A stretch of 64,000 bases of DNA from an uncultured Solirubrobacterales bacterium (GTDB lineage: Bacteria > Actinomycetota > Thermoleophilia > Solirubrobacterales > 70-9), in contig CAWHQR010000010.1 in NCBI GenBank assembly GCA_963831605.1, positions 1,073-65,072 of the forward strand, read 5' to 3'. How positions within the stretch are numbered: the stretch's first letter is position 1; each line of letters opens with the position of its first letter. Made by a program: the position numbers and the translations under genes. The notes below the pieces were generated by a model that worked only from the letters and a program-made list of their open reading frames with translations, was not told the origin of the DNA and did not search any database. Below, in pieces: positions 546 through 13,822 of the stretch.

Positions 546-620
546 GACGGCAAAATCGTGCGCTACGACTCCTACTGGAACCGCGCCGAGACCCTCGAAG
601 CCGCCGGGCTGTCGGCGGAG
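546..620 (+). pseudogene. 3' remnant of a SnoaL-like cassette gene (...GKIVRYDSYWNRAETLEAAGLS, stop lost)
   Basis: Frame of ORF 468..1031 reads the family C-terminal signature. The nucleotide string ctcgaagccgccgggctgtcgg matches the 3' ends of the six intact paralogues. No matching N-terminal part. Confidence 0.5.
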
Positions 621-666
621 CCGCTTTGGACGAAAAGCGGCTATGCCGCGTTGCATGGAAAGCAGC
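620..666 (+). repeat. Hairpin pair: type A (GCCGCTTT-GGACGA-AAAGCGGC) then type B (GCCGCGTT-GCATGG-AAAGCAGC)
   Basis: Read directly. 8-bp inverted repeats around 6-nt loops, between the cassette remnant and CDS 709. Confidence 0.85.
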
Positions 667-669
667 ACG

Positions 670-696
670 TTGACTTCAGCCGCCTGGCGGTAGACT
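670..696 (+). promoter_or_regulatory. Possible promoter TTGACT-N15-TAGACT, 12 nt before ATG 709
   Basis: Hexamers read directly. The 15-nt spacer is short, so this is weak. Confidence 0.25.
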
Positions 697-708
697 CAGC
701 CGCCGCGG

Positions 709-1470
709 ATGATCTCGCGCGGGGCAAAGAGGTTGGGGTTGGCAGCGGCCGTGGCGCTCACACTCCTCGCTGTCCTCGCGCCCGCTTCGCCGGCGGCCTC
801 CCAGCAGTTGAAGATCCGCGCGGTCTACCTCGGCGGGAACATCACGCCCCCGGTCTCGTTCGTCGAGCTGCAGATGACGGCGCCGGGGCAGACCCTCCTC
901 AATGGGCAGGTGCTCAGCATCTGGAACCACGACGGCTCGTCGAACACCAACTTCGTCCTCAACCACGACGTCGCGAACGGCGCGGACCAGAGCACGATCC
1001 TGATCGGAGACCAAGGAGTGCCGAGCGCTGACTTCAACGTGCTGATGCATTCCTCGCTGACCGCCAGCGCCGCCGCGGGGGCCGTTTGCTACGCCTCGAT
1101 CGATTGCGTGTCCTGGGGTGGAGCGTCGTTCACTGGCAATTCGAGCCTCCCGACCTCGGCTGGGACCCCGATGTCCTCGGGCCTCAACACCACCTCGGTC
1201 CTCATCAGGACGATCGCGCGCGGCTGCGCGACGGCGCTCGACGAAGCCGACGACACCAACGACAGCCTCGCCGACTTCACCTCCGGGCCATTCGCGTACC
1301 AGAACAACGCGAGCCCGCCGACCGACACGCCGTGCGCTCCCCCCGTGTCTACCACCCCGGCCCCATCTCCGACCGGTCAGCGCGCCGCCGCGCTCAAGAA
1401 GTGCAAGAAGAAGCAGGGCAAGAAGGCCCGTAAGAAGTGCAAGAGGAAGGCGAGCCTGCTACCCGTCTAA
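709..1470 (+). CDS. Secreted protein, lamin-tail-domain-like core, Lys/Cys-rich C-terminal tail
   Basis: Signal peptide LGLAAAVALTLLAVLAPASPAAS. SFVELQMTAPGQTLLNGQVLSIWN resembles the LTD pattern (xFVELxN...L.GW.L). Tail QRAAALKKCKKKQGKKARKKCKRKASLLPV. Confidence 0.7.
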   Translation: MISRGAKRLGLAAAVALTLLAVLAPASPAASQQLKIRAVYLGGNITPPVSFVELQMTAPGQTLLNGQVLSIWNHDGSSNTNFVLNHDVANGADQSTILIGDQGVPSADFNVLMHSSLTASAAAGAVCYASIDCVSWGGASFTGNSSLPTSAGTPMSSGLNTTSVLIRTIARGCATALDEADDTNDSLADFTSGPFAYQNNASPPTDTPCAPPVSTTPAPSPTGQRAAALKKCKKKQGKKARKKCKRKASLLPV

Positions 1471-1502
1471 GCGCGGATGCGAATCGAACGCACCGGGGAA
1501 CC

Positions 1503-1543
1503 GCCGCTTTGGACGAAAAGCGGCGCTTTGCATGGAAAGCGGC
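1503..1543 (+). repeat. Fused type A + type B hairpins
   Basis: gccgctttggacgaaaagcggcgctttgcatggaaagcggc, 33 nt after stop of CDS 709..1470. Confidence 0.85.
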
Positions 1544-1593
1544 ACTGAACTCGCGCCCTGCTGCGGATCTTCGGCCAGTCGCGCTAGCGGCGG

Positions 1594-2451
1594 CTACTTC
1601 TTTCGCTTCAGCGTCACCGAGGTCGCGAGGGCCCGTGCTGTGCCACCCGTCGGCGTGTACGTGATCGTCGGCGAGACGCTCACCTTGCCCTTCAATCTGA
1701 GCTTCCTCTTCTTCTTCCCCGAGGCACGGATGGGCAGCTGCACCGTGCCAGCCGAGGGAACGCTCACGGCGGCTCTTGCGCCAGAGGAGCTGGCCGTCAC
1801 GCCCGTTCCGCCGACCGTCGCGGTGCCTGGGTTCGGAATGGTGATTGTCGCGGTGGCAGTCCCGTTCTTCTTGTTCCGTGCGATCCCATCCACGGTGAAG
1901 GTGTTGGTCGGCTCCACCTTGGCCGAGACGTTCAGGCGACGATCCATCGCGAACAGGGCGAAGGTCCCAGAGCCGCCGTCATCCAGGCTCCCGGGACTCC
2001 TGAAGTAGCTCTCGCCGGTGACGTCGAAGGTGCAAATGGGCCCGGTTGTGTCAGCTGGTCCGGTGGAATTCCCGAGGATCTCGCCGGCCTTGACCGCCAG
2101 ATTCGCCTGGAACGTGTTCAGGGTGTTAGGGGTGATCGTGTGAGGGCCGTCGTGGACGATGACCTGGTAGGACGTCCCCCCGAGCGACCGATACACCTTC
2201 ATCGTGAGCGCGTCCCCCGCCGCCGTGCCACCTTGCGTGCTCCATGAGGTGAGCGTCCATTTCGTGATCCCGCCCGTCGACGGCACCACATAGCTATTGC
2301 CCGAAGTGACCGTTGGCTGCACCCGATCGAACGGGGAGCAGAAGACCGCCGGGGTGGACGTCTGCCCGACGATTACGGCGCCTGCGGGCGCAGCGCCCGC
2401 GGCCAGCGCCAACACGGTCAGCACCACAAGCTTGATCGATAAGCGTCTCAT
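1594..2451 (-). CDS. Secreted protein with C-terminal K-rich ...PTITYTPTGG... module
   Basis: ORF 1594..2466. The second ATG (2451) has AGGGGAG 5 nt upstream. Signal peptide MRRLSIKLVVLTVLALAAGAAPAGA. C-terminal module shared with CDS 14672..15826. Confidence 0.7.
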   Translation of the reverse strand: MRRLSIKLVVLTVLALAAGAAPAGAVIVGQTSTPAVFCSPFDRVQPTVTSGNSYVVPSTGGITKWTLTSWSTQGGTAAGDALTMKVYRSLGGTSYQVIVHDGPHTITPNTLNTFQANLAVKAGEILGNSTGPADTTGPICTFDVTGESYFRSPGSLDDGGSGTFALFAMDRRLNVSAKVEPTNTFTVDGIARNKKNGTATATITIPNPGTATVGGTGVTASSSGARAAVSVPSAGTVQLPIRASGKKKRKLRLKGKVSVSPTITYTPTGGTARALATSVTLKRKK

Positions 2452-2658
2452 CTCAACTCCCCTCATCCACTTCCCCTGTACCGCAACAACCGATCGACCC
2501 TAACACTCCGCTGGTCGCCGACGCAAGCTCCGCTACCAGCCCCGGGGGCGGCGGCGGGCTAGCTAGCGGCGGTCTTTTGAGCGGGCAGTTCTCCGCCGGC
2601 ACCCTTCCCTGGGTCGCGGGATACTGATCAGGTCAAGTCCAAGCAGAGGAGGAACCAA

Positions 2659-2886
2659 ATGGCGCGGTGGATCAAAGGAATGGCCGCGGCCGGTGCTCTG
2701 ACGGTTGCACTCGCATTTCCGGCTGGAGCGGGAGCGCGAACGCAGTGGATCTGCACGGTCGATGGTGAGCAAGTCGTCTTCGTGTCTGCGGGCGACGCTG
2801 CCCACCACGGGCTCACGATTGCTGACAGCAAGGCTGGGGTCGTGTTCGAAACTAAGTTTGGTGAGGTGGACTGCCACGTAGAGTGA
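2659..2886 (+). CDS. Small secreted protein (75 aa)
   Basis: AGAGGAGG 6 nt before the ATG. Signal peptide MAAAGALTVALAFPAGAGA. Two Cys in the mature part. Confidence 0.5.
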   Translation: MARWIKGMAAAGALTVALAFPAGAGARTQWICTVDGEQVVFVSAGDAAHHGLTIADSKAGVVFETKFGEVDCHVE

Positions 2887-2896
2887 CGCGGAGGGC

Positions 2897-2930
2897 GTGG
2901 AGCCCTCGAAGCCCGCTGGATCTGTCGAAT
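2897..2930 (+). pseudogene. Degenerate 3' remnant of a SnoaL-like cassette gene
   Basis: gccctcgaagcccgctggatctgtcgaatgg aligns to the family 3' end gccctcgaagccgccgggctgtcggagtag with a few substitutions and indels. Followed by a type A hairpin, as in intact cassettes. Confidence 0.4.
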
Positions 2931-2936
2931 GGCAAA

Positions 2937-2962
2937 CCGCTGCTTTGGACGAAAAGCAGCGG
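2937..2962 (+). repeat. Type A hairpin (CCGCTGCTTT-GGACGA-AAAGCAGCGG, 10-bp stem)
   Basis: Read directly. Confidence 0.85.
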
Positions 2963-3106
2963 TCCTACGCCGAAGAGCCCCGCGATTGCGAGGCTCTCCG
3001 TATTCCCTCCGCCCCCGGCGGCCACCACGGCGGCCGGGGCGGGCGTTCTCAACCTACGCCCTGGTGGCGGACGGGCCAACGTCGGTTGACGATCCAGCGG
3101 CATGGC

Positions 3107-3316
3107 CTACTCCTTGACGAACTGGATCACCAGGCGCTCCGGCTGTTCCTTCTGAAAGTGCCGGACTCGCACGCGCCCGCCGCGCTTCGCACCTTGCTGT
3201 CGAGCGTTGGTCGCGAACGTCGTCGGCTTGCCGCCGAAATCGACGCCTGCGATCAACTCCCACGGCGAACCGTCGAAGGTGATGACGGTCTCCCGTTCTG
3301 CGGCGGTCAGGCTCAT
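3107..3316 (-). CDS. Hypothetical small protein (69 aa from internal ATG)
   Basis: ORF 3107..3418. ATG at 3316 has AAGGAAA upstream. No recognisable domain. Confidence 0.3.
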   Translation of the reverse strand: MSLTAAERETVITFDGSPWELIAGVDFGGKPTTFATNARQQGAKRGGRVRVRHFQKEQPERLVIQFVKE

Positions 3317-3797
3317 GGGTTTCCTTTGCTCACGGTTCGGTTCCTTTCGAGGATTGGGGCAAAAGTGGGTGCGCGTCGATTCCGGGAAGGACGTGTTTGG
3401 GGTCCCCGTGGAGTTCACGGGTTCTCATTCAGTCCGCTTCGTCGGCCCGGCCCTAACCCGCCGAACGCGGGGCGCTTTGTCAGCGGCCGGCGCATCGGTC
3501 GTTGAACGCCACCCCTGCGCTGACTGGGGTCCTCAACGTCAGACGTACATCGTCTCCCTGGAAGCCCGCGACTCTTCAGACGCGATCAGGCGCGTGAAGG
3601 AAGCACTCGACGGCGAAGGCAGCTACGTCGAGTTCTCGTCTGACTCGCGCGTTTAGGGGGTTGAACAATCTGGGGTAGGGTCACCGGCAGTCGGCCCGCA
3701 AGAAGGGCTGGTCCTGCGCCGCGATAGCTCCTAGGCGCGTGACAAAGGCCCGGAGTAACGCCAGCTAGTCGCCGTCGAAGGCTTACGGATGGCGGCG

Positions 3798-3836
3798 GCT
3801 CAACTACTGCTTTGCATGGAAAGCAGCGGGTTGAGC
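3798..3836 (+). repeat. Type B hairpin with extended outer stem (GCTCAAC...GTTGAGC)
   Basis: gctcaactactgctttgcatggaaagcagcgggttgagc read directly. Confidence 0.8.
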
Positions 3837-3941
3837 TGACGATTCAGGAGGCAGCTGCCACCCCTGCCGGGGATGGCGCTTCGGCACATCGTCAACGGTC
3901 TCGTGGATGGAAACCGAAGTTTCGAAAGCCCTGACCATGCC

Positions 3942-4487
3942 TTACGGGAAGGTTCCGTTGACGCAGATCACGTAGCGGGCACCGTGCGGGCCCGCGCCCT
4001 TCGGCTCCGCGCCCTGGAGGTCAGGCAGCGCAAAGTTGTTGGTGCCATTGCCACCGTACGTCGTGCCCAACAGGCCGAACAGGAGGGCATTCGAGCTGAT
4101 ATCCAGCAGCCGGCCGTCGGCTGGAAGCATGGTGTTGGGGTAGGTGTTGCCGGCGATAAGGCTGAGTTCGCCAAGCACACAACTGACGTTAACCACGCCC
4201 TGACTAAAGCTGCCGCCGGGGCTCCCGAAGAGACCCGCGGACGCGAAGTTCAAGCTGGAAGGGCTGATATCGGCCGCGGTCAGCGACTGGTCCTGGACTT
4301 TCGCTCCATTCACCGCGTTGGCCTGGATCTTCGCCCCATTCACAGCGTTGTTCTTGATCTGCTTCGTGCCGATTACGTTCTTTCCCAGATGAGTCGCGGC
4401 GATTGCGCCGCCACCGAGCGCCAGGAAGACGGCAACCGTCGCCATCACGTTCGCGTAGGTCAGATTGGCCCGAACCTTCCCCGTCAT
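3942..4487 (-). CDS. N-terminally anchored phage-tail-collar-domain protein (COG4675/MdpB-like)
   Basis: ATG 4487 with GGAGG upstream. TM anchor ANVMATVAVFLALGGGAIAA. Repeats IKNNAVNGAKIQANAVNGAKVQ. C-terminus LLDISSNALLFGLLGTTYGGNGTNNFALPDLQG matches the tail collar consensus (LFsLLGttyGGdG.ttFaLPDLrG). Confidence 0.8.
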   Translation of the reverse strand: MTGKVRANLTYANVMATVAVFLALGGGAIAATHLGKNVIGTKQIKNNAVNGAKIQANAVNGAKVQDQSLTAADISPSSLNFASAGLFGSPGGSFSQGVVNVSCVLGELSLIAGNTYPNTMLPADGRLLDISSNALLFGLLGTTYGGNGTNNFALPDLQGAEPKGAGPHGARYVICVNGTFP

Positions 4488-4557
4488 GGCCCACCTCCTG
4501 CATCGCTTCTTCTCCCTTCGGTCTGAATCATATGGCGCGGGGACGGGACGGGCGAAC

Positions 4558-4593
4558 GCTGCCTTGGACGAAAAGCAGCTACCGCATGAAGGC
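4558..4593 (+). repeat. Type A hairpin plus degenerate type B
   Basis: gctgccttggacgaaaagcagc followed by taccgcatgaagg. Confidence 0.75.
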
Positions 4594-4607
4594 GCCCCCC
4601 GACGCAG

Positions 4608-4636
4608 TTGACACCCTCCTCGGCCATGGGTATAGG
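4608..4636 (+). promoter_or_regulatory. Candidate promoter TTGACA-N17-TATAGG for CDS 4707
   Basis: Perfect -35 and 17-nt spacer read directly. The -10 lacks the final T. Confidence 0.35.
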
Positions 4637-4706
4637 GTCGCCCACAGCGTGAGGGGGGCAGGGGACCCCGCATCCGGGGGGGCGACGAACGACGAAAGGA
4701 CGATCG

Positions 4707-4970
4707 ATGGCTACGTACGTGATCACCCATGAAGTGGACGATGTCGACCAGTGGTTGAGCTCGCCGAAGCGTGAAGAGGTATTCGGGCCAATTGGCGTCA
4801 CTGTTCGGACCTTCTCGGATCCAAATGGATCCAACAAGACCGCGCTCATCGCTGAGATCCCGGACATGGAGGCGTTCCAGGAGCTCATGAAGAGCGACGC
4901 CGCAGCGGATGCCATGAAGAACGACGGGGTCAACCCGGAGACAGTTCTCGTTCTGAGCGAGGGTCAATAG
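4707..4970 (+). CDS. Hypothetical small cytoplasmic protein (87 aa)
   Basis: AAAGGA 8 nt before the ATG. Coding-like composition. Followed by an A+B hairpin pair. Confidence 0.55.
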   Translation: MATYVITHEVDDVDQWLSSPKREEVFGPIGVTVRTFSDPNGSNKTALIAEIPDMEAFQELMKSDAAADAMKNDGVNPETVLVLSEGQ

Positions 4971-4977
4971 CGGCGTA

Positions 4978-5025
4978 GCCGCTTTGGACGAGAAGCAGCT
5001 GTCCGCTTTGCATGGAAAGCAGCGG
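4978..5025 (+). repeat. Type A then type B hairpins
   Basis: agccgctttggacgagaagcagct gt ccgctttgcatggaaagcagcgg. Sits between stop 4970 and the leader of CDS 5051. Confidence 0.85.
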
Positions 5026-5050
5026 CCGCCCGCGACATACTGCGCGAGGG

Positions 5051-5449
5051 ATGTCGGAGGAGAACGTCGAGCTCGTGCGGAGGGCATTAGACGCCTGGAA
5101 CCAACAGGATGAAGAGACGGCCTTGCAGCTCTTCTCGCCTGACGCGGAGCTCGATGCGTCCGGCCGCATCCTGAACCCGGATATCTACACCGGGATCGAC
5201 GGCCTCATGCGGTTTCGCCGTGATATCGCCGAGGCCTGGGATCGCTTTGAGGTGGAGATCGAGGACCTCTTCGATTCCGGCAGCCTCGTGGTGGTCTTTG
5301 TCCGCTCGCTTGGCAAAGGGAGGGCCAGCGGGATCGAGGTCGATTTTCGCTCGGCTTGGCTCGTCGCTGTGTCCGATCAGAAAATCACGAGACTTCGGTT
5401 GTATCGGGAACGGAAGGAAGCCTTGGAAGCCGCCGGCTTGTCGGAGTAG
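5051..5449 (+). CDS. SnoaL-like / NTF2-family protein, paralogue 1
   Basis: MSEENVELVRRALDAWNQQD...EALEAAGLSE. Start chosen by alignment with paralogues. The upstream M of ORF 5012 lies inside hairpin B. Confidence 0.85.
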   Translation: MSEENVELVRRALDAWNQQDEETALQLFSPDAELDASGRILNPDIYTGIDGLMRFRRDIAEAWDRFEVEIEDLFDSGSLVVVFVRSLGKGRASGIEVDFRSAWLVAVSDQKITRLRLYRERKEALEAAGLSE

Positions 5450-5458
5450 TTGGAGACC

Positions 5459-5480
5459 GCCGCTTTGGACGAAAAGCGGC
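5459..5480 (+). repeat. Type A hairpin
   Basis: gccgctttggacgaaaagcggc, 10 nt after stop 5449. Confidence 0.85.
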
Positions 5481-5625
5481 TACCGGAGGAGACGCATGAG
5501 CGGATAGTGGCCGCGGCGAACGCTGCCCGCGCCGTGTAGGAGCAGGGCCGCCCGGCTCAATCGCGGATCGCCTCCGGAAGTGGAGTCGGCCGCGAACGCG
5601 TTCTGAACCGAGTGCCAGGGCCGAG

Positions 5626-6060
5626 CTACTGGCGCTCTCCCTCCGTGGGTTTGGAGATCGCCTCCACTAGCTCACCGGTCATCTCCTCGTTCTCGCCGAG
5701 GGCGATGTCGGCTTGGGTAACGATGCCGGCGAGTTCGCCGTTCTCGACCACGGGCAGCCGCCGAACCTGGTGGCGTGCCATGAGCTCGAGCGCCTCCTCA
5801 AGGTCCTTGTCGGGCTCAACGCTGATGGGATCCTGACGGCCGATGTCTCCGACCGACGTCGCCTTGGGGTCTGCCCCATCAGCGACCACTGTCGTCGTGA
5901 TGTCTCGGTCGGTGATCATCCCGGCAAGCTTCCCGTCGTCGGTTATCGGCAGCGACCCGATGTTCTCGTCGCGCATCAGTCGCGCGGCCTCGACGATCGA
6001 CGCCGAGGCGTCGATCGAGTGGGGCTCCTCGGTCATCGCGTCGCGAACGCTCGTCGCCAT
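5626..6060 (-). CDS. CBS-pair domain protein
   Basis: Two CBS motifs (GSLPITDDGKLAGMITDRDI; RRLPVVENGELAGIVTQADI). GAGGAGG before the ATG. Confidence 0.9.
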   Translation of the reverse strand: MATSVRDAMTEEPHSIDASASIVEAARLMRDENIGSLPITDDGKLAGMITDRDITTTVVADGADPKATSVGDIGRQDPISVEPDKDLEEALELMARHQVRRLPVVENGELAGIVTQADIALGENEEMTGELVEAISKPTEGERQ

Positions 6061-6166
6061 CGTGCCTCCTCCTCTTTCTGTGCGATCTGAGTCCTGCTGC
6101 TGACGACCGCAGACGTTACGGATCTCCGTCAGGTCGCGCTTGCGCGGTAAGGGCGATCCAATGAGC

Positions 6167-6214
6167 GCCGCTACCCATGCAAAGTGGAATAGCCGCTTTG
6201 GACGAAAAGCAGCT
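6167..6214. repeat. Inverted type B fragment abutting a forward type A hairpin
   Basis: gccgctacccatgcaaagtgg aat agccgctttggacgaaaagcagct. Confidence 0.7.
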
Positions 6215-6585
6215 ATTCAGACGCGCGTTTCAAATCTGCAATGTCAGCCAGCGGGGTATTAAGAGATACGGGACGTGTGCCTTCGCGCACGGTCTCCCCC
6301 GCCCCCCATGGCCCTGCTTGGTTTCGGCTTCGGGTTCCGGGTTCGGGGTCAAGCTCGGACGAGCGGTTGATCGACATCGAGATCAACCGACACAAAGGCG
6401 TGGGGGTTTTTGTTTTTCCCTACCTCAATCGACTGGACACGCGGAATACGGGTCCGGGTGTCCCCAGCTCGAGGACGCAGGGGGGACCCACCCCCTCCCT
6501 CCTCGCTCTGTCCAAGGACGCTTTCAGCCGCTAGCTCGTCGCTAGAGGGTCCGGCGCAGCAGGCGAACCGAGTCGGCGCTCGCCT

Positions 6586-7791
6586 TCACTCGGTGTGGCG
6601 GTCCCTCGCCACCGGCCCGCCCGTGGCGAGCACGCGTTCGAGCGTGTCGAGAGCGAACGAGACATCGTCCGAACCGTTAAAGAAGTGAATCGAGAATCTC
6701 GTCGAACCGAAGCGCGGGGAGACGATCACTCCCGATTGATTCATCCATGCCGCCACCTGCTCGCCGTCGCGCTCGGGGAAGCGTGCGGTGACGATGCCAC
6801 TTCGCCGCTCGTCCTCGCGGGGCGTAATCACCTCGGCTCCCAGGTGTTCGAGCCCCTCGATGAGCGTCGAAGCCAGTTTCAGGTTGTGCTCGAGGATCCG
6901 ATCGACGCCGATCACCGAGATCTGCCTGATCGCGGCCGCCAGCGCAACGCCGGCGGAGTAGGACATGGTCGCGTACTCGAGTCGCTCGACCACCGACGAG
7001 GCCAGCCTGAGCGAAGAGGCGTGCAGCGACCAGGGGTCGACCGCACTCTTCCATCCGACGAAGTGAGGATCGAGCCGCTCGAGCAGCCGCTCGCCGACGT
7101 AGCAGAGCGCCGCGCCGAAAGGCCCGCAGAGCCACTTGTAGCCCGCGCAGAGCAGGGCGTCGATTCTCACGCTGGAGAGATCAATCGGAACCGCCCCCAG
7201 CGACTGCGAGGCGTCGACGACCAGCAGGGCGCCGTTGGTCTCGGCCAACTCCGAGAGCTCCTCGAGCTGGTAGCGAAAGCCGGTCGAGTACTGGACGTGG
7301 CTGACGCTGATTGCTGCGGTTCGCTGGTCGACGGCCTCAGCGAGCCCCTCGAACGAGAGCTTGGCCAGGTCCCCAGCCGCTGGGACCAGGCGGACCTCCG
7401 CCCCGGTGTCTCGCGCGACCCTCATCCAGGGATAGGTGACGGTGGGGAACTCGAGGTCGATTGAGACCACATTGCTGCCGCTCTCTGGACGCAGCGACCA
7501 GGCGATCTGCGAGAGCGCCTCAGTGACGCTTGTCGTCACCGCGACCTGTTCGGCCGGTGCGCCGAGCAGCGCGGCGCCCTCGCGGCGCGCCTGCTGGAGG
7601 ACGCCCACCTCGGTCGGCTCATCGAACCAGGTGGTGCCATATAGGCCGAGCTGGCTCTGGAACTTCTCCTCCTCGGCCAGGGCGCTCCGCGACATCAGAC
7701 CGATCGAGGCGGTGTTCATGTAACAGATGTCGTCGAGTGCGGGGAACTCGCCCGCGGGGGCCAGCGAGGCGTCCACGTTCTCCTGCGACAT
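6586..7791 (-). CDS. Class V aminotransferase / cysteine-desulfurase-like PLP enzyme
   Basis: 401 aa. YMNTASIGL near the N-terminus and overall class V layout. The first six codons MSQENV are shared at nucleotide level with the SnoaL cassettes. Confidence 0.85.
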   Translation of the reverse strand: MSQENVDASLAPAGEFPALDDICYMNTASIGLMSRSALAEEEKFQSQLGLYGTTWFDEPTEVGVLQQARREGAALLGAPAEQVAVTTSVTEALSQIAWSLRPESGSNVVSIDLEFPTVTYPWMRVARDTGAEVRLVPAAGDLAKLSFEGLAEAVDQRTAAISVSHVQYSTGFRYQLEELSELAETNGALLVVDASQSLGAVPIDLSSVRIDALLCAGYKWLCGPFGAALCYVGERLLERLDPHFVGWKSAVDPWSLHASSLRLASSVVERLEYATMSYSAGVALAAAIRQISVIGVDRILEHNLKLASTLIEGLEHLGAEVITPREDERRSGIVTARFPERDGEQVAAWMNQSGVIVSPRFGSTRFSIHFFNGSDDVSFALDTLERVLATGGPVARDRHTE

Positions 7792-7794
7792 CGC

Positions 7795-8235
7795 CTACTC
7801 CCGCAGCCCGGCGGCTTCGAGGGCCTGTTCGAGGGTGTCGTACTGATCAAGCCTCGTGATCCGGCCATCCTGAAGCTCGAAGGAGAGGACGAGTTCCATC
7901 TCGACCCGCAGCCCGCTCGCGCTTCCAACGCCCGACGCCTTCATGGGGACCAGGACGCGCTCGCCGGCCTCGACGTAATCGAGCCACTTCATGCGGTATT
8001 CGCTGAACGGCTCGAACCATTCCCTGAAGTATCGGATCAGACCGTCCCAGCCCTTGTAAAAGCTGCTTGGACCGGACCCAATACCCGACTCCAGCGTCCT
8101 CAGCTCGATGTCGGGCGAGTAGTCGCGCTCCAAGATCTCGCGGATCGCTTCGCCTTCCCAATCGATGCCGGTGATTTCCGCATCATCAAACGGTTCGAGC
8201 AGCGCCTTGATCTTCTCGACGTTCTCCTGCGACAT
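7795..8235 (-). CDS. SnoaL-like / NTF2-family protein, paralogue 2
   Basis: MSQENVEKIKALLE...QALEAAGLRE. 3-nt gaps to both neighbours (TAG-GCG-ATG). Confidence 0.85.
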   Translation of the reverse strand: MSQENVEKIKALLEPFDDAEITGIDWEGEAIREILERDYSPDIELRTLESGIGSGPSSFYKGWDGLIRYFREWFEPFSEYRMKWLDYVEAGERVLVPMKASGVGSASGLRVEMELVLSFELQDGRITRLDQYDTLEQALEAAGLRE

Positions 8236-8238
8236 CGC

Positions 8239-8661
8239 CTACTCCGACAGCCCGGCGGCTTCGAGACCATCGGCGCGGTCCGAATATTCCTCGATACGGC
8301 GGAGTTTGCCGCCCTCGAAGGTGTTGACGTGAGCCAGCTCCATGTCGATTGGAACCCCGCTTTCTGCACCGTGGCCCGAGAAGCGAACCCAGACGAACGC
8401 CCGATTGCCGTTGGTCTGGATCTCAAGCGGCTCCACCTGCAGGTCGGGATAGGCCTCGACCCATCGCCATATCTGCTGCCTCACCGCCTCGATGCCCCGG
8501 TGGATGCCGGGATCAGGGTCGCTGGCGGAGTTCACGTACACGCCGTCCGGATGCCAGACATCCAGCGAGGCGAGTTCTTGCTCGTCAACGGGATCTCGTT
8601 CGGCCCGGTTGAACCTGGCGTATCCCGTGCGAACGAAATCTTCGACGTTCTCCTCCGACAT
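8239..8661 (-). CDS. SnoaL-like / NTF2-family protein, paralogue 3
   Basis: MSEENVEDFVRTGYARFN...DGLEAAGLSE. ATG 8661 preceded by the conserved leader gagatactgcgtgggcg. Confidence 0.85.
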   Translation of the reverse strand: MSEENVEDFVRTGYARFNRAERDPVDEQELASLDVWHPDGVYVNSASDPDPGIHRGIEAVRQQIWRWVEAYPDLQVEPLEIQTNGNRAFVWVRFSGHGAESGVPIDMELAHVNTFEGGKLRRIEEYSDRADGLEAAGLSE

Positions 8662-8690
8662 CGCCCACGCAGTATCTCGCGGCGGAGTAC

Positions 8691-8708
8691 TGCTTTCCAT
8701 GCAAAGCA
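8691..8708 (-). repeat. Type B hairpin (reverse orientation)
   Basis: tgctttccatgcaaagca, 30 nt upstream (gene sense) of ATG 8661. Confidence 0.8.
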
Positions 8709-9032
8709 CCAGTGTCGTTAACAGATCGCCGCCGAGAACTTCAATACCGGGTGGAGCTCTATGGCGTTCGGCGCGACCCCGGTTTGACCGTGCGGGATGT
8801 CGAAGAAGCCCACTCCGGTCAACGTCGCACACGACAGCTAGTTCTCGAGCTGCGCGGGCTTTCTGAAGGGCTGGTGCGTTCCCGGCGCCGCCCTTCCGTT
8901 TCCTTGTCAAGAAGCTGATTGCCCAGGTGGGGAGCTTGAAGACGGCGCCGGCTGTTCCGTAGTCGAGTTGGTGGTGAAGCAACTGCGGTTTCGCCATGCA
9001 GGTGAACGACCGCAAGCAGCGTAAGTGGTCGC

Positions 9033-9500
9033 ATGGCCATCGTTCAATCTCCTGACCAGCAGGCGGACGAGATTCTGCTGCAAGAGCTGGAGCGCACGGA
9101 CGATTTGCTGCTGAAAGAGCTGGAGCGCGTGGACGAGATGCTCCTGCGGATTGTGGCCACAATCGACCTATTGCCGGAGCGAATCGCCTCTGCAAATAGG
9201 AGGGAGTTCAGGTCCGTATCAGGCAATGGAACGGGTGCAGCAGAACCGGCGCGAGGCCAGGCGTCCACTCGACCGTTCGACCCCTATGGGGAGGACGAGG
9301 TCGACCCCTATCTGGAGGACGAGGTCGAGGCCGCCGCGGACAAGAAGTCAGCGGCCAGTCAGGTGGCCACGAAAGTGGAGGGCTGGGTAGCGGGCTATGC
9401 CCCAGACTGGGAGGCGCCCAGATTCGCAACCGTCTCGCTGGCGGTTGCCTTGTTTGCGACCGCCATCGCTGTGGTCGGCTTGATCGTTGCTGTCTTTTAG
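9033..9500 (+). CDS. Hypothetical tail-anchored protein (acidic, C-terminal TM helix)
   Basis: Internal repeat LLQELERTDDLLLKELERVDEMLL. C-terminal VSLAVALFATAIAVVGLIVAVF. Locally lower GC. Confidence 0.45.
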   Translation: MAIVQSPDQQADEILLQELERTDDLLLKELERVDEMLLRIVATIDLLPERIASANRREFRSVSGNGTGAAEPARGQASTRPFDPYGEDEVDPYLEDEVEAAADKKSAASQVATKVEGWVAGYAPDWEAPRFATVSLAVALFATAIAVVGLIVAVF

Positions 9501-9528
9501 TCCGGGCGTGGAGGCAATCCTCATGACT

Positions 9529-9557
9529 GAAAAAGGGCGATAGCCCAGGTATCGCCC
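9529..9557 (-). terminator. Intrinsic terminator after paralogue 4
   Basis: Minus strand: GGGCGATA-cctgggc-TATCGCCC followed by CTTTTTC. 8-bp stem abutting the stop codon. Confidence 0.6.
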
Positions 9558-9958
9558 TACTCCGACAGCCCGGCGGCTTCGAGGGCCTTTGCGTCCTGGT
9601 GGGGGAGGAAGTTCTCCACTCGCGTAAAGATGCCGTCGTCGTCAAACGTCCAGAGGACCCAGAACTCGAGATCCATCTCGATCCCGCTCCCCGCTCCACG
9701 GGCGCGGGCATACGAGCGGACCAGAACGTTGTTGCCCTGGACCCGGAACTCGCGTGGCTGAAGCTGTTGCGACTCGAAGGCGTCGGGCTCCATCCATGCT
9801 CGAAGCGCGTCCACGCCTCTCAGCGGCGCTTGATCCCCCGCGGGGAAGAACTCAATCTCGGGATGGACCCGCTCCACCGCGGCGTCGAAGTCGCCGCGAT
9901 TGAAGGCTTCATAGCCACGCCGCACGACATCGATCATCTCCTGCTCTCGGTCAGGCAT
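9557..9958 (-). CDS. SnoaL-like / NTF2-family protein, paralogue 4
   Basis: MPDREQEMIDVVRRGYEAFNRGDFDAAV...KALEAAGLSE. Conserved leader gagatactgcgcgggcg before the ATG. Confidence 0.85.
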   Translation of the reverse strand: MPDREQEMIDVVRRGYEAFNRGDFDAAVERVHPEIEFFPAGDQAPLRGVDALRAWMEPDAFESQQLQPREFRVQGNNVLVRSYARARGAGSGIEMDLEFWVLWTFDDDGIFTRVENFLPHQDAKALEAAGLSE

Positions 9959-9986
9959 CGCCCGCGCAGTATCTCGCGCAAAGGTT

Positions 9987-10030
9987 TCGCTTTCCATGCA
10001 AAGCAGATAGCCGCTTCTCGTCCAAAGCGC
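9987..10030 (-). repeat. Type B + type A hairpins (reverse orientation)
   Basis: tcgctttccatgcaaagcaga t agccgcttctcgtccaaagcgc. Confidence 0.85.
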
Positions 10031-10360
10031 AACTTGGAGGGTCTAGGTGAGGAGGGATCCTCAGCCCGAAGATGGAGCGGATGGACCATCAACCGGAGCC
10101 CGTTCAGTTCCTGGAGTGGATACACGGACCAACAGGAGCGCGGAATAGCGCCAGCCGGTTCGGGACTCTGAATCGGAAGCCACCGCGTGTGACATCTGGA
10201 GGACCCCCCCTACGGTGTCTTTGGTTCGCGCGGCGTCTATCTGAGCGACAAGCTCTCTCATCGACGAACCTTCGAACCCGAGGAGTTTGGTCGCCTCCAC
10301 AAGGCGGCATCATAGGTGGCCGTTCTTGCCTAGCGTGTTTGACGCTCGCACCAAGACACA

Positions 10361-10400
10361 GCGCTTCCATGCGAAGTGCCGCTTCTCGTCCAAAGCAGCT
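10361..10400 (-). repeat. Degenerate type B + type A hairpins (reverse orientation)
   Basis: gcgcttccatgcgaagtgc cgcttctcgtccaaagcagc. Confidence 0.75.
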
Positions 10401-10433
10401 GTCGCCTACTCCTGCAGCCCGGCGGTGGCTAGG
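10401..10433 (-). pseudogene. 3' remnant of a SnoaL-like cassette gene (...LATAGLQE*)
   Basis: ctactcctgcagcccggcggtggctag aligns with the family 3' end ctactccgacagcccggcggcttcgag. No upstream body. Confidence 0.45.
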
Positions 10434-10534
10434 GGGAAGTCATGGCGGCTTGGAAGAAGCGGCGATTCTGAACGCGCCCGACAGGATTCGAATCTGGGGC
10501 AGACTCGCAGCGAGCATCGTGCACCCCTGGGAGA

Positions 10535-11785
10535 TCAGTAGATGGGCAGCTTGTCGAGGAGCGCAAATCGGTCGTCGATTGTCTCGAGCAGATCCTTGTT
10601 GTGAAAGATCATCTTGCTGCGCGTGTAGACGCGAAGCCACTGCTTGTAGATGTGGAGCTCATAGCGGTCGAGCATCTCGCTGAGCGTCAGGTCTTCACGC
10701 TGAGCGATCAGTCCCGCCAAGAACATCGCGCACTCGAAACCGAGCGAGATCGACTGGAAATACGGAGAACCGATTGCCGAATCGCCGGCCAGGAACACGG
10801 GCGAGCTGGAGAAGGGGTGATCATCGGGGCCCGTCTTGCGCCATTCGCGGTTGGTCGCGTTACGCGCTCGATACACGTTGAGCGGGATCCGGACTATCGC
10901 CAGGTCGCCGACCAGCTCGCCATTGGTTTCCTGCTTGATCTTGTCGATGAAGTTGTCCATCGACTCCGCGACCGCGGGAAAATTGCTGCGAAGCCAGTTG
11001 CCATCGAAATGTGACGGCATCGCCTCGTACTCGTCAGCGGTGATGTGGACGATTCCTGTCACGTGGGTGACGCTGCCGTCGTAGTAGGTGCGGTGGACGA
11101 ACGGAATGAACTTGTAGTGAGGGTTTTCGGCGTTCTTGTAGTACTTGCAGTACTCGTTGCAGTCGTAGGTCTGGCCGTACAGGAAGGTGATCACCAGCGC
11201 GTGTTCGAGCGAGATGTTCAGCGTGTTCGCGCCTCCAACCAAGGCCTCGTCGCTGGAGCCCGGTGCCAGGTGATCTCGTAGCAGCGACCCGCTGCCCGTG
11301 CAGTCGACCAGGAGGTCACCCGGCTCGAGCATCGCGATCGCGTCCTGCGCGGTTACGTCGGCCTCAGTGCGTTGCACTGCGCTCGACCCGTTCGAGTCGA
11401 TCAAATCGCTGAGCGTGTGCTCGATGGCGTTGAGCGGACAGAACCCCTGTGCCCACTCGCGAAGATTTGCCATCAGCTCGCGGGAGACGGACCGTCGGAA
11501 CGCGAGGCCCTCGTCGAGCTCTTCCGGATCGAAGACTGCGGCGACCGTGTCTCCGTCAATGTAGTCGGCGCTGTAGCTCTCGACTGAATCCGCCACGAGA
11601 TAAGGCGCGAGTTGGACCATTCGGGTGCGCGTGTACTCGCGTCGCTTCTCGTAGAGGCTCAGCGGAAGGCCCTCGATCGACTGCAGCAACGCCGTCAACA
11701 TGAGGCCAACGGGCCCCGCGCCGATGACGTGGACTCGGCCTGCGGAAGGAAGGGACTCGTCGAGGACAGTAGAGGCGGGGGTCAT
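10535..11785 (-). CDS. FAD/NAD(P)-binding oxidoreductase (monooxygenase-like)
   Basis: N-terminal dinucleotide fold VHVIGAGPVGLMLTALL. GD motif FLAGDSAIGSPYF. 416 aa. Confidence 0.8.
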   Translation of the reverse strand: MTPASTVLDESLPSAGRVHVIGAGPVGLMLTALLQSIEGLPLSLYEKRREYTRTRMVQLAPYLVADSVESYSADYIDGDTVAAVFDPEELDEGLAFRRSVSRELMANLREWAQGFCPLNAIEHTLSDLIDSNGSSAVQRTEADVTAQDAIAMLEPGDLLVDCTGSGSLLRDHLAPGSSDEALVGGANTLNISLEHALVITFLYGQTYDCNEYCKYYKNAENPHYKFIPFVHRTYYDGSVTHVTGIVHITADEYEAMPSHFDGNWLRSNFPAVAESMDNFIDKIKQETNGELVGDLAIVRIPLNVYRARNATNREWRKTGPDDHPFSSSPVFLAGDSAIGSPYFQSISLGFECAMFLAGLIAQREDLTLSEMLDRYELHIYKQWLRVYTRSKMIFHNKDLLETIDDRFALLDKLPIY

Positions 11786-11901
11786 TGAGTGGCCGACCAG
11801 CCTTACTCCGGGGGCATCGTAGAGCCTCTCACGATATACCTGACCCCGGCGTCTGCGAAGCTCTTGGCGTGACGTCGTTGGGCCAATGGCGCACCTGGTG
11901 G

Positions 11902-12453
11902 GTGAAGCAGCGCTGGTATGAGCGCAACCACCGCCAGCGGCGCCGCCTGCGCCTCAACCGTCACGCGGCCCAGGGTGGGTTCTTCATCCGCTATCCGATC
12001 GAGGGCGAGGTCCTTGAGGCGCTCGATTCGGGAAGGCTGGAGATCGGCGAGGGCACCCTTCTGGAGCCGGGCTGCTGGCTGACCCTCTCGGACGACGCGC
12101 GGATCAGGATCGGAGAGGGCTGCTTCCTGAACAAGAACACCATGCTCGCGGCCCTCGAGCTCATCGAGATCGGCGACCACGTGATGTTCGCCAACAACTG
12201 CTTCGTCGGAGATTCGAATCACCGCTACGACGACCCGACCAAGCCGATCACCTGGCAGGGCTTCGAGCCGCAGGGCCCCGTGCGGATCGGCTCCAATTGC
12301 TGGTTCGGGGTCGACTGCGTCGTCACCGGCGGCGTCCAGATCGGGGACCGGTGCGTAATCGGCGCGAATTCCGTGGTCACGAAGGACCTCCCCAGGGGAG
12401 TGATCGCGGCCGGTGTCCCGGCCAAGGTGATCAGGGAGATCGAGTTCAAGTGA
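11902..12453 (+). CDS. Hexapeptide-repeat (LbH) acyl/acetyltransferase; start uncertain (11785-11902)
   Basis: IGEGCFLNKNTMLAA..IGDHVMFANNCFVGD..IGSNCWFGVDCVVTGGVQIGDRCVIGANSVV. ORF-track start 11785 overlaps the divergent ATG of 10535..11785, so the in-frame GTG at 11902 is preferred. Confidence 0.75.
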   Translation: MKQRWYERNHRQRRRLRLNRHAAQGGFFIRYPIEGEVLEALDSGRLEIGEGTLLEPGCWLTLSDDARIRIGEGCFLNKNTMLAALELIEIGDHVMFANNCFVGDSNHRYDDPTKPITWQGFEPQGPVRIGSNCWFGVDCVVTGGVQIGDRCVIGANSVVTKDLPRGVIAAGVPAKVIREIEFK

Positions 12454-12566
12454 TGCCCCGGTTACACCGGGCCGCACCTGCGGTCATATTCGACACCCGG
12501 TTCCCTGCCACGACTCAACGAGGAAGCCGATGAACGACCAAACCCCCGCCCCCGTTCCCTAGCTAA

Positions 12567-12626
12567 CCGCTGCTTTTCGGCTCCGGCGAAACCGCCGCTT
12601 TCCATGCGGCGCCTCGTCCAAAGCAC
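12567..12626 (-). repeat. Compressed/degenerate A and B hairpin cluster
   Basis: Gene sense after the stop: tgctttggacgaggcgccgcatggaaagcggcggtttcgccggagccgaaaagcagcgg. Confidence 0.6.
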
Positions 12627-13027
12627 TACTCCGACAGCCCGGCGGCTTCGAAGGCTTCCTCCTTCGTCTGGTACATCGTGAGCGAGGTCTGCTTCCCGTC
12701 GCGGAACGCGATCAGCCACGCGCTTCGCACCTCTAGGTGGATGCCGTCCCGACCCCGCATGTGTGCGACGTTCTCCACGATCACCCGGCCGTCCTCGACC
12801 TCGACCAGGTCAACGAGCTCAAACCGCATTTCCTCGAATGCCGCGAGGCGCTCTTGCCAGAACGCCCGGATTTCGTCGTGTCCCCGATAGACGCGCGCAT
12901 CGAATGCGCGGCCGTTGGACCAGTCCCAAACGGCGTCGGGGGCCCACTCCTCCAACGCCCCTTCGACGTCACGATTGTTGTACGCGGCGAAGGCGCGTTG
13001 TACCGTCTCGACGTTCTCCTCCGACAT
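12626..13027 (-). CDS. SnoaL-like / NTF2-family protein, paralogue 5
   Basis: MSEENVETVQRAFAAYNNRD...EAFEAAGLSE. Confidence 0.85.
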   Translation of the reverse strand: MSEENVETVQRAFAAYNNRDVEGALEEWAPDAVWDWSNGRAFDARVYRGHDEIRAFWQERLAAFEEMRFELVDLVEVEDGRVIVENVAHMRGRDGIHLEVRSAWLIAFRDGKQTSLTMYQTKEEAFEAAGLSE

Positions 13028-13055
13028 CGCCCACGCAGTATCTCGCGGACGGGTG

Positions 13056-13075
13056 CTGCTTTTCGTCCACAGCGG
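13056..13075 (-). repeat. Type A hairpin (reverse orientation), here in the 5' leader position
   Basis: ctgcttttcgtccacagcgg, upstream of ATG 13027 after leader gagatactgcgtgggcg. Confidence 0.75.
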
Positions 13076-13143
13076 ATGGTGTCGCCAAGTACCGATCGGC
13101 CGGCGCCACCGCCGGCCGAGGCGGGCGCGCCAGTTCTCGGCGA

Positions 13144-13332
13144 TTATCCCTTCAGAGGGGGCAAGTCTTTCCCCCTCTTTCGCTCATAGATGGTCCCGGC
13201 GACTGCCGCGATCAGTAGGGCTGCGACGACAAACCGCAGTCCGAGCGGTAGACCGGTCGCCCATACCACTATCAATGCGATCGCAAGCACCAGCACCGCG
13301 ATTCGGTAGATGTCTAGGCGGGTGAGTCCCAT
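13144..13332 (-). CDS. Small two-TM membrane protein (62 aa)
   Basis: IAVLVLAIALIVVWATGL and FVVAALLIAAVAGTIY helices. Wedged between two cassettes. Confidence 0.45.
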   Translation of the reverse strand: MGLTRLDIYRIAVLVLAIALIVVWATGLPLGLRFVVAALLIAAVAGTIYERKRGKDLPPLKG

Positions 13333-13378
13333 AGGTGGAGCCTCACGCTGGATCTACCCCTTGTCAAGGGATGATCGC

Positions 13379-13400
13379 CAGCTTCTCGTCCAAAGCAGCT
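13379..13400 (-). repeat. Type A hairpin overlapping the stop codon of paralogue 6
   Basis: cagcttctcgtccaaagcagCTActcc. Confidence 0.8.
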
Positions 13401-13794
13401 ACTCCGACAACCCGGCGGCTTCGAGGGCCTGCTCTCTGCTGCCGTAATAGTCGAGGCGCACGCATTTGCCGTCTCGCAGCGTCCACACCGCAGCGTCGAC
13501 ACGTTCCACATCGACGCCACTCTGGCGTCCCCTGGCATGAACGCGGAGAACCGCGACGACGCGCTCACCAGCCTCAATGAACTCCTCCGGATCCCAACGC
13601 CAGCTCTCCCAACTGCTCTCCCAATCGGCCTGCCAACGAGCCAGTCCTTCCAACCCCCGGTACTCACCGGAGTCCGGTATGTCGTGGTCGTAGATCTCGA
13701 TCTCCGGGTCGCAAACTGCAAGAGCAGATTCCATGTCGCCGCGTAGGTACGCGTCATAGGAACGGCGCACTATCTCCACGTTCTCCTCCGACAT
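13399..13794 (-). CDS. SnoaL-like / NTF2-family protein, paralogue 6
   Basis: MSEENVEIVRRSYDAYLRGD...QALEAAGLSE. Leader gagatactgcgtgggcg. Confidence 0.85.
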   Translation of the reverse strand: MSEENVEIVRRSYDAYLRGDMESALAVCDPEIEIYDHDIPDSGEYRGLEGLARWQADWESSWESWRWDPEEFIEAGERVVAVLRVHARGRQSGVDVERVDAAVWTLRDGKCVRLDYYGSREQALEAAGLSE

Positions 13795-13822
13795 CGCCCA
13801 CGCAGTATCTCTCGGCGGAGTA

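Follow-up and report, generated by a model that had tools for sequence, protein, structure and literature searches.

Mobile gene cassettes between short palindromic sites in an uncultured Solirubrobacterales bacterium: a probable site-specific recombination array with SnoaL_2 genes as its commonest cargo

Introduction

Integrons and dif modules are the described systems that come closest in behavior to the locus reported here. The integron site attC is 60-140 nt long, is conserved in structure, and has an R''-L''...L'-R' layout with the crossover in the R' box, while dif, lox and FRT sites are the general model for a core site built of arm, overlap and arm. In the shufflon, inverted repeats lie within the 3' region of one gene, and Rci inverts segments between them to swap C-terminal parts of the protein. 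Some insertion sequences (IS) target recombination sites: attC in the case of IS1111-attC elements, and pdif in the case of ISAjo2-like IS. The subject of this study is a stretch of 64,000 nt from an uncultured Solirubrobacterales bacterium (contig CAWHQR010000010.1, positions 1,073 to 65,072), hereafter called the window. Positions 1 to ~13850 of the window belong to a chromosomal array whose cassettes are mobile and mostly hold a single gene, and which continues past the left edge. With a probability of about 70%, in our judgment, this array works by site-specific recombination at two types of short site, A and B, and a short tyrosine recombinase of related genomes is the leading candidate for the enzyme.

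The dif modules have been described as unique to Acinetobacter plasmids (PMC13141974). There, inversions and deletions take place between sites with identical spacers, and a given module turns up in different contexts (PMC13141974, PMC6449649). The module sites are also targeted by IS elements (PMC10132070). Actinobacteria are reported to be without complete integrons (PMC9024848). In genome engineering, heterospecific sites that flank a cassette allow its exchange without excision (PMC2887974). Neither the A nor the B sequence was found in the searched literature, and topic searches found no such system described. The original prediction for this locus, made by a model from the letters of the window, was of a set of SnoaL-fold paralogues assembled by integron- or shufflon-like recombination at conserved boundaries, and not by simple tandem duplication. 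The array of cassettes stands, but it has neither IntI nor attC and is not a shufflon.

Sites at the cassette boundaries

The cassettes end at 22-28-bp palindromic sites in which 8-11-nt inverted arms, ATAGCYGCTTT and AAAGCRGCTAT, enclose an asymmetric 6-nt spacer. The spacer is GGACGA in type A and GCATGG in type B, giving the 16-nt cores GCTTT-GGACGA-AAAGC and GCTTT-GCATGG-AAAGC. With three mismatches or fewer, 19 matches to the A core and 23 to the B core are present in the window, against 0.3 and 0.2 expected; the two lists overlap, as at three mismatches each pattern also picks up the other motif. About 21 sites lie in 600-13850 and one in the remaining 50 kb, and the GC content of the array region is 61-65% against 67-72% over most of the remaining window. 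Up to 6210 every site is on the + strand, and from 8690 onward every site is on the - strand, the exception being a degenerate B at 6170-6185 in the opposite orientation. On the + strand, A cores are located at 623-638, 1506-1521, 2942-2957, 4561-4576, 4981-4996, 5462-5477 and 6195-6210, and B cores at 648-663, 1525-1540, 3809-3824 and 5005-5020. On the - strand, A cores are located at 10013-10028, 10381-10396, 13058-13073 and 13381-13396, and B cores at 8692-8707, 9989-10004 and 13825-13840, the last site of the array, with a degenerate B at ~10365-10380.

Relatives were found by scanning species-representative genome contigs (designated by L numbers) with the B core, and the figures given for them refer to the matches listed. 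Among these, the overwhelming majority are metagenome-assembled genomes (MAGs) of Solirubrobacterales/Thermoleophilia, many with several sites per 8 kb, and the rest are scattered single chance matches. The sites are dispersed over Solirubrobacterales chromosomes, on contigs of up to 2.6 Mb. In the related loci, the arm consensus is ~ATAGCYGCTTT-N6-AAAGCRGCTAT, the outer 3 nt of each arm being weakly conserved, and the arms are accompanied by the B spacer in 202 cases and the A spacer in 102; no other spacer occurs more than six times. The outer stem position pairs in ~58% of sites and is a C·A mismatch in ~23%, with weak covariation. Conservation is thus highest in the apparent loop and the inner arms of a stem that does not covary, which suggests a core site and not a hairpin selected for its structure. 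By analogy with known core sites, A and B would be double-strand substrates of a tyrosine recombinase, in which two inverted binding arms enclose an asymmetric 6-nt region of overlap.

Adjacent junctions are co-oriented in 198 cases and opposed in 31, at a median spacing of 864 nt, the size of a single gene. According to crude gene calls passed through a filter on GC content at third codon positions (GC3), non-SnoaL genes run with their site in 33 cases and against it in 25, while all 17 SnoaL genes are co-oriented. Polarity therefore follows the array and not the gene, which argues for a role of the sites at the DNA level. When open reading frames (ORFs) of 90 high-GC loci near B sites were clustered, the largest family was SnoaL (65 members in 38 loci), followed by a trypsin-like protease (20 members) and by tyrosine recombinases (nine members).

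A different origin has to be considered at this point, namely repetitive extragenic palindromic (REP)-like sequences, which an unseen enzyme of the HUH or REP-associated tyrosine transposase (RAYT) type, or slippage, would have spread. Such palindromes would act as RNA hairpins, and the breaks described below would have come from RecA-mediated or illegitimate recombination. The sites are indeed short intergenic palindromes dispersed genome-wide in high copy, and the region does undergo homologous or illegitimate events. A hairpin fold is predicted for each site (z-scores -1.1 to -3.7), GTAG precedes many A sites as it does REPs, and the innermost pair is a T·G wobble in half of the A sites. 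However, T-tracts are missing and terminator-like sites are not enriched (9 vs 8.9 expected). The mismatched outer stem, the 6-nt loop that is the most conserved part and has just two types, and the polarity that tracks the array do not fit either. No Y1/HUH gene is among the recurrent families of the 90 loci, where tyrosine recombinases are present. Moreover, many independent breakpoints fall within an identical core of 17 nt, which is short for RecA. This origin of the sites is quite unlikely. In searches against Rfam, the whole window gave only a tRNA at the gathering threshold and no family at the sites, and positions 1-14500 gave one chance-level match at an E-value threshold.

Several variants of the sites were also observed. 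At 12597-12624 on the - strand, a fused A/B site reads GCTTT-GGACGA-GGCGCC-GCATGG-AAAGC; it equals an A-B doublet minus its inner arms and is possibly an aberrant recombination product. An isolated B at 62430-62445, with a half-duplication consisting of GCTTTCCATGCA and GCTTTCCATGCAAAGC (62418-62445), stands alone as a cassette junction, 48 kb away from the array. It adjoins a gene with an ALK/LTK glycine-rich domain (61203-62195), and 96.4% homology to L059 ends inside this site. A third type, C, has the same arms with the spacer GCGCGA (L140 2221/3045, L151 787/1629, L139 699) and brackets other members of the short-recombinase family, and B sites in L001-L120 are often followed by C-like palindromes whose stems vary.

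Breakpoints and rearrangements at the sites

Segments 1-641, 4561-4999, 5460-6213, 8236-8708, 13065-13380 and 61198-62429 of the window each find their best match in a different MAG, at 88-97% identity, and each of these matches ends at a site. Homology with L034, L065, L043, L220 and L222 stops at A sites of the + strand, and the breakpoint against L214 falls inside A 10381-10396. When the flanks of sites were compared all against all, 20 pairs shared one flank only and two shared both, both of the latter from one MAG. Rare arm variants are held in common only on the homologous side: the left arm GCTCCTTT goes with the left flank and the right arm AAAGCAGT with the right flank. These variants travel with their own flank, and the exchange is thereby placed between the arms.

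Single cassettes recur in different surroundings. The clearest case is the CBS-domain cassette (5460-6213, - strand), which extends from A 5462 to A 6195 and carries the gene 5626-6060. Its protein is identical on 14 contigs, and the cassette, with the same A-to-A ends, is 97% identical in at least four contexts besides the window, twice on one contig. Similarly, the cassette of a 62-aa membrane protein (13065-13380, - strand; gene 13144-13332; from A 13058 to A 13381) is 94.6% identical in L083, where it comes after a B site. The cassette of an 87-aa protein (4561-4999, + strand; gene 4707-4970) runs from A 4561 to A 4981 in the window and is preceded by an A-B doublet in L065.

The comparison of closely related strains, which had been suggested as a check, revealed changes of whole blocks at the sites. 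Contigs 99-99.8% identical to the window are colinear with it over 3275-9586. In L214/L215 (99.5% identical), the block 10378-12544 is on the opposite side of the array core from where it stands in the window, and in L216 the sequence corresponding to 9586-13892 is replaced by other cassettes. L214 and L216 have 5.5 kb and 1.0 kb, respectively, between an A and a B site, and A 2942 has three different left neighbors among near-identical strains. In another set (L121/L123, L122 and L124), flanks 99.8% identical enclose either a 0.8-kb or a 4.6-kb block between B and A, the larger one containing six SnoaL genes and a gene for a protein that binds cyclic nucleoside monophosphate (cNMP). One inversion is exact: 15036-16795 of L125 is the reverse complement of 15035-16794 of L126, 100.0% identical over 1,760 nt between colinear flanks. 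At its four junctions, left and right arms are re-paired across the identical 17-nt core GCTTTGGACGAGAAGCA. The inverted 1,760-bp segment lies between inverted A sites and carries a recombinase gene. Replacement, translocation and inversion at cassette boundaries bear out the prediction that recombination, not plain tandem duplication, drives the array.

Two observations concern the edges of the variable blocks. ARAGORN detected no intact tRNA at the edges of cassette blocks in the relatives; tRNA-like T-arm fragments, GGTTCGAATCC, occur at such edges in L122 (~12270-12440) and, as the reverse complement, in L216 (~13290-13320). An element of the IS110 family (DEDD_Tnp_IS110/Transposase_20; L127 16781-17956, L128 16932-17978, compared with L125 ~16759) sits at the boundary between arm and spacer of a B site in some strains and is missing in others, so that it seems to target the sites.

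A short Xer-like recombinase in related genomes

The original prediction found no recombinase in the window, and we agree: tblastn with nine integrases gave no match in the window, and a Pfam scan of ten ORFs (two from the array, the others to the right of it and near the tRNA) detected no recombinase domain. The ORF beside the tRNA at 50.7 kb, checked as a possible recombinase, is a pyridine-nucleotide oxidoreductase. The search of related genomes found further sites and with them a short tyrosine recombinase. It is ~215 aa long (range ~211-233 aa) and has the PF00589 catalytic domain only (101 bits), with partial scores on XerC, XerA, XerD and FimB/E-type invertase models. When it was aligned to XerA (4a8e/5hxy) and XerD structures, the RxxE, KGG, HxxR, GH and Y elements of tyrosine recombinases were all present, in the motifs aGLRisE, GKGG, HQLRH, LGH and IY. 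The closest sequenced relative of the window organism, MFD02199.bin.2.51, which is 96-97% identical in shared segments, carries this recombinase.

Four of the nine clustered recombinases are short forms (L093, L108, L112 and L016), and all four have a + site upstream and a - site downstream. The bracket is a tight A+/A- pair in L093 and L108; L112 has B+ upstream at ~110 nt from the start, and L016 has two degenerate, A-like sites. Exact-protein look-ups of two members added ten contigs (L121-124 and L125-130), in which A+ is 46 nt upstream of the recombinase start and A- directly follows the stop, except for int2 of L125, where A- lies beyond a second, 94-aa gene. Thus, in every A/B-bearing locus examined the recombinase gene is between inverted sites, mostly A+/A-.

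The same cassettes could be moved by another enzyme. The full-length XerC/XerD of the host, or some other recombinase acting in trans, might work at dif-like sites, with the short recombinase as a cassette itself or a local invertase. The layout of arm, 6-nt spacer and arm resembles dif, the short recombinase is not found in the window, and most family members in metagenomes are without recognizable A/B flanks. In the dif-module literature, Xer-type sites mobilize modules in reactions between identical spacers (PMC13141974). However, the symmetric arms suggest one protein and not a XerC/XerD pair, and a lineage has hundreds of copies of the sites against a single dif. The recombinase gene, moreover, is between opposed sites in all the loci just mentioned and inside the sole segment seen to invert. 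On balance, a host Xer pair or another recombinase in trans is an unlikely agent. A classical integron, or a CALIN (a cluster of attC without integrase), with unusual attC sites would likewise give co-oriented arrays of small cassettes shuffled between genomes. Against it, no IntI is found, the recombinase scores 60.6 bits on the integron-integrase model TIGR02249, whose cut-off is 265 bits, and sites of 22-28 bp that are conserved in sequence and exchanged in the middle are unlike attC. Together with the reported lack of complete integrons in Actinobacteria (PMC9024848), this makes an integron extremely unlikely. A CRISPR array and a diversity-generating retroelement were also considered and rejected.

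SnoaL_2 genes as cargo

Six SnoaL genes had been predicted, and all six ORFs are present: 5051-5449 on the + strand, and 7795-8235, 8239-8661, 9557-9958, 12626-13027 and 13399-13794 on the - strand. The claim that copies occur on both strands holds only to the extent that one of the six is on the + strand. All six belong to SnoaL_2 (PF12680) at 41.2-62.9 bits, above the Pfam gathering cut-off of 27, which confirms the predicted fold. The SnoaL_2 match in Pfam also led to the rejection of an IS200/IS605 element whose transposase would be the SnoaL gene. The cassette gene 5051-5449 lies between B 5005 and A 5462, and 13399-13794 between B 13825 and A 13381. Gene 8239-8661, 88.6% identical to L036, is preceded by a 5' box (8659-8678) and B 8692; gene 9557-9958 by a 5' box (9956-9975), B 9989 and A 10013; and the cassette gene 12626-13027 by a 5' box (13025-13044) and then directly by A 13058. 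Gene 7795-8235 is joined to both of its neighbors by TAG-GCG-ATG without any site (7792-7794 and 8236-8238).

The ends of these genes are conserved as DNA while the middles have diverged, as had been predicted. In a protein-guided codon alignment of the six, mean third-position identity reaches 0.86-1.0 over the seven codons at the start and the ~9 at the end, against ~0.33 in the middle, so that divergence along the genes is not uniform. At identical residues, the same codon is used in 157 of 182 pairs (86%) at the ends and in 191 of 452 (42%) in the middle (Fisher p=1.4e-25), and the conserved end codons include the non-preferred GAA and GGG. The ends are thus conserved as DNA and not as protein alone. 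The upstream, or 5', box gagatactgcgtgggcg is intact before 8239, 12626 and 13399. The copy before 9557 has one substitution, and the first codons of that gene differ; the one before 5051 is diverged, and none precedes 7795, whose start is 3 nt after the previous stop. A full junction between two SnoaL genes reads ...GAAGCCGCCGGGCTGTCGGAGTAG-(0-3 nt)-A-(~3 nt)-B-(8-12 nt)-CGCGAGATACTGCGTGGGCG-ATGTCGGAGGAGAACGTCGAG. Among 47-65 SnoaL genes from many MAGs, nucleotide conservation extends from about -22 to +21 around ATG and from -33 to 0 before the stop codon. The terminal motifs MS(E/Q)ENVE and LEA(A/V)GL(S/R)E are at the same time a protein-level feature of the family, also found in orthologues, and nucleotide homogenization sits on top of it.

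The conserved ends do not enclose a swapped middle. Paralogue 13399-13794, the sole one tested, has whole-gene orthologues elsewhere at 65-98% identity, contrary to the idea of divergent cargo between fixed ends. Nor are the coding ends the principal boundary. As predicted, boundaries are conserved and recombining, but these are the hairpins, that is, the A and B sites, and ~70% of A/B sites in the related loci have no adjacent SnoaL gene. The SnoaL 3' box precedes 29% of A sites and the 5' box follows 28% of B sites, which makes SnoaL a cargo and not a part of the site.

Homology-driven events at the SnoaL ends are observed as well. Between the window and L214/L216, a strain-level crossover falls exactly at the inner edge of the 3' box (9557-9586): the 3' box and the flank beyond it are common to the window, L214 and L216, and the SnoaL body of the window is unlike that of the other two. 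TAG-GCG-ATG joints without a site recur in the window and in L121/L122; in them, GGAG from the last codons of the upstream gene sits 6 nt before the next ATG. While tandem duplication is not the main process, as had been claimed, the two site-less junctions of the window (7792-7794 and 8236-8238) show that tandem growth of SnoaL genes also occurs. The class-V aminotransferase gene 6586-7791 (- strand) begins with six codons, MSQENV, that are a grafted SnoaL 5' end; its 96% homology with L026 ends at 7773, with the breakpoint at codon 6.

Three orphan 3' ends had also been predicted. Two of them match the 3' box with three mismatches or fewer (603-620 and 10406-10423). The first belongs to a remnant at 546-620 (+ strand) of ~25 codons and the 3' box, which has lost its stop codon and abuts A 623; in L034 it is 97% conserved with the stop intact. 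The second, at 10401-10433 (- strand), abuts A 10381 and is present in L214/L215 too. The third, upstream of A 2942 (2897-2930, + strand), is degenerate and visible by eye only. One truncated remnant, in L124, arose by an ordinary deletion, which took the 5' part of a SnoaL gene and left its 3' end.

All of this could in principle reflect an ordinary expanded family of paralogues, grown by tandem duplication and kept alike at the ends by protein-level selection and gene conversion, with incidental hairpins. The conservation of the terminal motifs in protein across orthologues, the site-less tandem junctions in the window and L121/L122, and the crossovers at box edges are all expected from it. 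However, it leaves unexplained why non-SnoaL cassettes recur in several contexts with identical ends set by the sites, how a segment between A sites came to be inverted, why 70% of sites have no SnoaL neighbor, and why the non-coding 5' sequence is conserved across species. As a complete explanation it is very unlikely, being contradicted by the inversion and by the contexts of the CBS cassette, and it survives as one component. Function may account for one part of the likeness of the ends, through an expression signal at the 5' end and, at the 3' end, coupling and a Shine-Dalgarno-like sequence; frequent short-homology recombination within a shared pool of cassettes may account for the other part. 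The 5' box GAGATACTGCGTGGGCG may be a promoter with GATACT as -10 and a near-leaderless start; it has no sigma-70 consensus promoter, and a promoter scan showed no enrichment. The 5' and 3' ends also share an in-frame direct repeat, (A/C)TG TCG GAG, which encodes M-S-E or L-S-E (e.g., 13792-13770 and 13416-13399). Recombination between such repeats would stay in frame, and the likeness could also be a coincidence of two conserved motifs.

Other genes of the window

Genes unrelated to SnoaL are cassettes in the same sense as the SnoaL genes. Besides the CBS, 87-aa and 62-aa cassettes, they include a two-gene block (10378-12544, - strand) with an FAD (flavin adenine dinucleotide)-binding-like gene (10535-11785, - strand) and a hexapeptide-transferase gene (11785-12453, + strand). 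Further cargo consists of genes for secreted proteins at 709-1470 (+) and 1594-2466 (-), a small secreted protein at 2659-2886 (+), a 69-aa gene at 3107-3313 (-) and a phage-tail-collar-domain gene at 3942-4484 (-). In L001-L120, the secreted trypsin-like serine protease near B sites has its 20 members in 17 loci and may be a favored cargo.

Just outside the array, gene 14672-15826 (- strand) contains five tandem 123-nt repeats (15010-15801) with 65-80% identity, which encode propeller blades of the low-density lipoprotein (LDL)-receptor class B (YWTD) type of a secreted protein. At the other side of the window, a tRNA (50739-50810, - strand) is overlapped by an ORF (49911-50795, - strand) with helix-turn-helix (HTH) domains of the resolvase/transposase type. 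The GC content dips to 65% over 50-54 kb, and the region 49911-54000 may be the remnant of an integrated element, in which no integrase was found.

Proposed mechanism and its weight

In the site-specific mechanism that we favor, a miniature Xer-like tyrosine recombinase would be encoded elsewhere in the genome, its own gene bracketed by inverted A-type sites. It would bind the symmetric arms of two sites of one type and exchange their strands within the spacer. The spacer would give the site its polarity and make A and B non-interchangeable, and exchange probably requires identical spacers. Directly repeated sites would lead to excision and integration, probably through circular cassette intermediates, and in this way to replacement and reordering of cassettes; inverted sites would lead to inversion. 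SnoaL_2 genes, each with its own conserved 5' region and 3' end, would be the commonest cargo. Their ends of ~30-45 nt would serve in addition as short homologies for ordinary recombination, which would produce homogenized ends, site-less tandem operons, grafted starts and truncated remnants.

Several points speak against this mechanism. The assignment of the short recombinase to the A/B sites is putative and comes from sequence, and its gene was not found in the window by tblastn or in the ten ORFs scanned against Pfam. In a sample of metagenome family members 70-86% identical to P0021, ~10 of 69 evaluable contigs have recognizable inverted flanking sites, of A or C type. The family is thus not universally tied to A/B sites, and the association holds in the A/B-bearing lineage only. 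Recombinases beside A sites do not separate from those beside C sites (A-A identity 0.76, A-C 0.74). With the same arms in A and C sites, this result is neutral: it would be expected of a protein that recognizes the arms and requires of the spacer no more than a match, but it is no positive evidence. As for the rearrangements, breakpoints at 3275, 12544 and 13892 of the window lie outside A/B sites, and the cassette 4561-4999 follows A in the window but B in L065. Among the strain sets compared, single-cassette presence or absence leaving one site was not seen, all changes being block replacements, translocation or inversion, and no circular cassette intermediate was found. The comparison sequences are mostly metagenome-assembled, and the orientation statistics depend on the crude gene calls and GC3 filter mentioned above.

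A wider proposal is that Solirubrobacterales possess an undescribed third cassette platform, next to integrons and the Acinetobacter dif modules, defined by a mini-recombinase, symmetric sites, A, B and C spacers that do not recombine with one another, B...A exchange, and SnoaL as a dominant, rapidly diversifying cargo. We put it forward tentatively, at slightly short of an even chance. If it is true, gene-cassette platforms have evolved repeatedly from Xer-like recombinases, and part of the accessory-genome flux in uncultured Solirubrobacterales, a dominant order of soil actinobacteria, would be explained. Cassettes flanked by B...A would be exchangeable between loci and species, as a natural form of recombinase-mediated cassette exchange. 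There would also be a concrete handle on the heavy amplification and diversification of one SnoaL-fold family. For engineering high-GC Gram-positives, an enzyme as small as this recombinase (~215 aa), acting on short sites whose spacers are naturally heterospecific, would be attractive. The recombinase family comprises >7,900 clusters at 90% identity in public metagenomes, so that the phenomenon could be widespread.

Comparison with known systems

Parts of the array resemble several described systems. With FimB/FimE it has in common a recombinase of ~200 aa with little or no core-binding domain and the inversion of a segment between inverted sites. As in archaeal XerA/dif, one protein would act on a symmetric site in our proposal, and XerA and XerD are the best structural relatives by sequence. 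Unlike Fim, with its one promoter switch, and XerA, with its one dif, hundreds of sites here bound mobile genes. REP sequences and bacterial interspersed mosaic elements (BIMEs) with their RAYT are also high-copy intergenic palindromes, sometimes paired and tied to genome rearrangement. In contrast to these, there is no RAYT gene among the recurrent families of the 90 loci, the central 6 nt are conserved in a stem without covariation, and polarity follows the array. Engineered cassette exchange with heterospecific lox or FRT sites offers a parallel for two site classes with shared arms and different spacers in a B...A flanking arrangement; the present system would be a natural one, and its A/B incompatibility is probable. 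The shufflon differs in that here the units are entire genes, direct repeats make up most of the sites, and the one inversion seen was of whole genes.

The arrays are like integrons in that they are co-oriented, consist mostly of single genes, are shared between species and are reshuffled between strains. A tyrosine recombinase is involved in integrons and probably here, and paralogous families and small proteins of no known function form the cargo. They differ from integrons in that an IntI-specific domain and an attI platform are missing and the cassettes are not gathered in a single array per genome. Their sites are short palindromes with a central crossover and not the long attC, which is defined by structure and recombined as a single strand, and many cassettes seem to come with a 5' expression signal of their own. 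The dif modules of Acinetobacter, for which mobilization through pdif by XerC/XerD is proposed, are likewise gene modules bounded by ~28-bp sites of arm, 6-nt spacer and arm. The A/B consensus has the same 28-bp, 11-6-11 form, and IS occur at the sites in both, as the IS110 element at the B site of L127/L128 illustrates. The present arrays, however, are chromosomal in Actinomycetota and not on Acinetobacter Rep_3 plasmids. Their arms are symmetric, and their sites are mostly co-oriented rather than alternating. They have two discrete spacer classes, often as A-B doublets, and a dedicated recombinase gene of ~215 aa between its own sites. The system behaves most like dif modules and integrons, and it departs from both in defining features.

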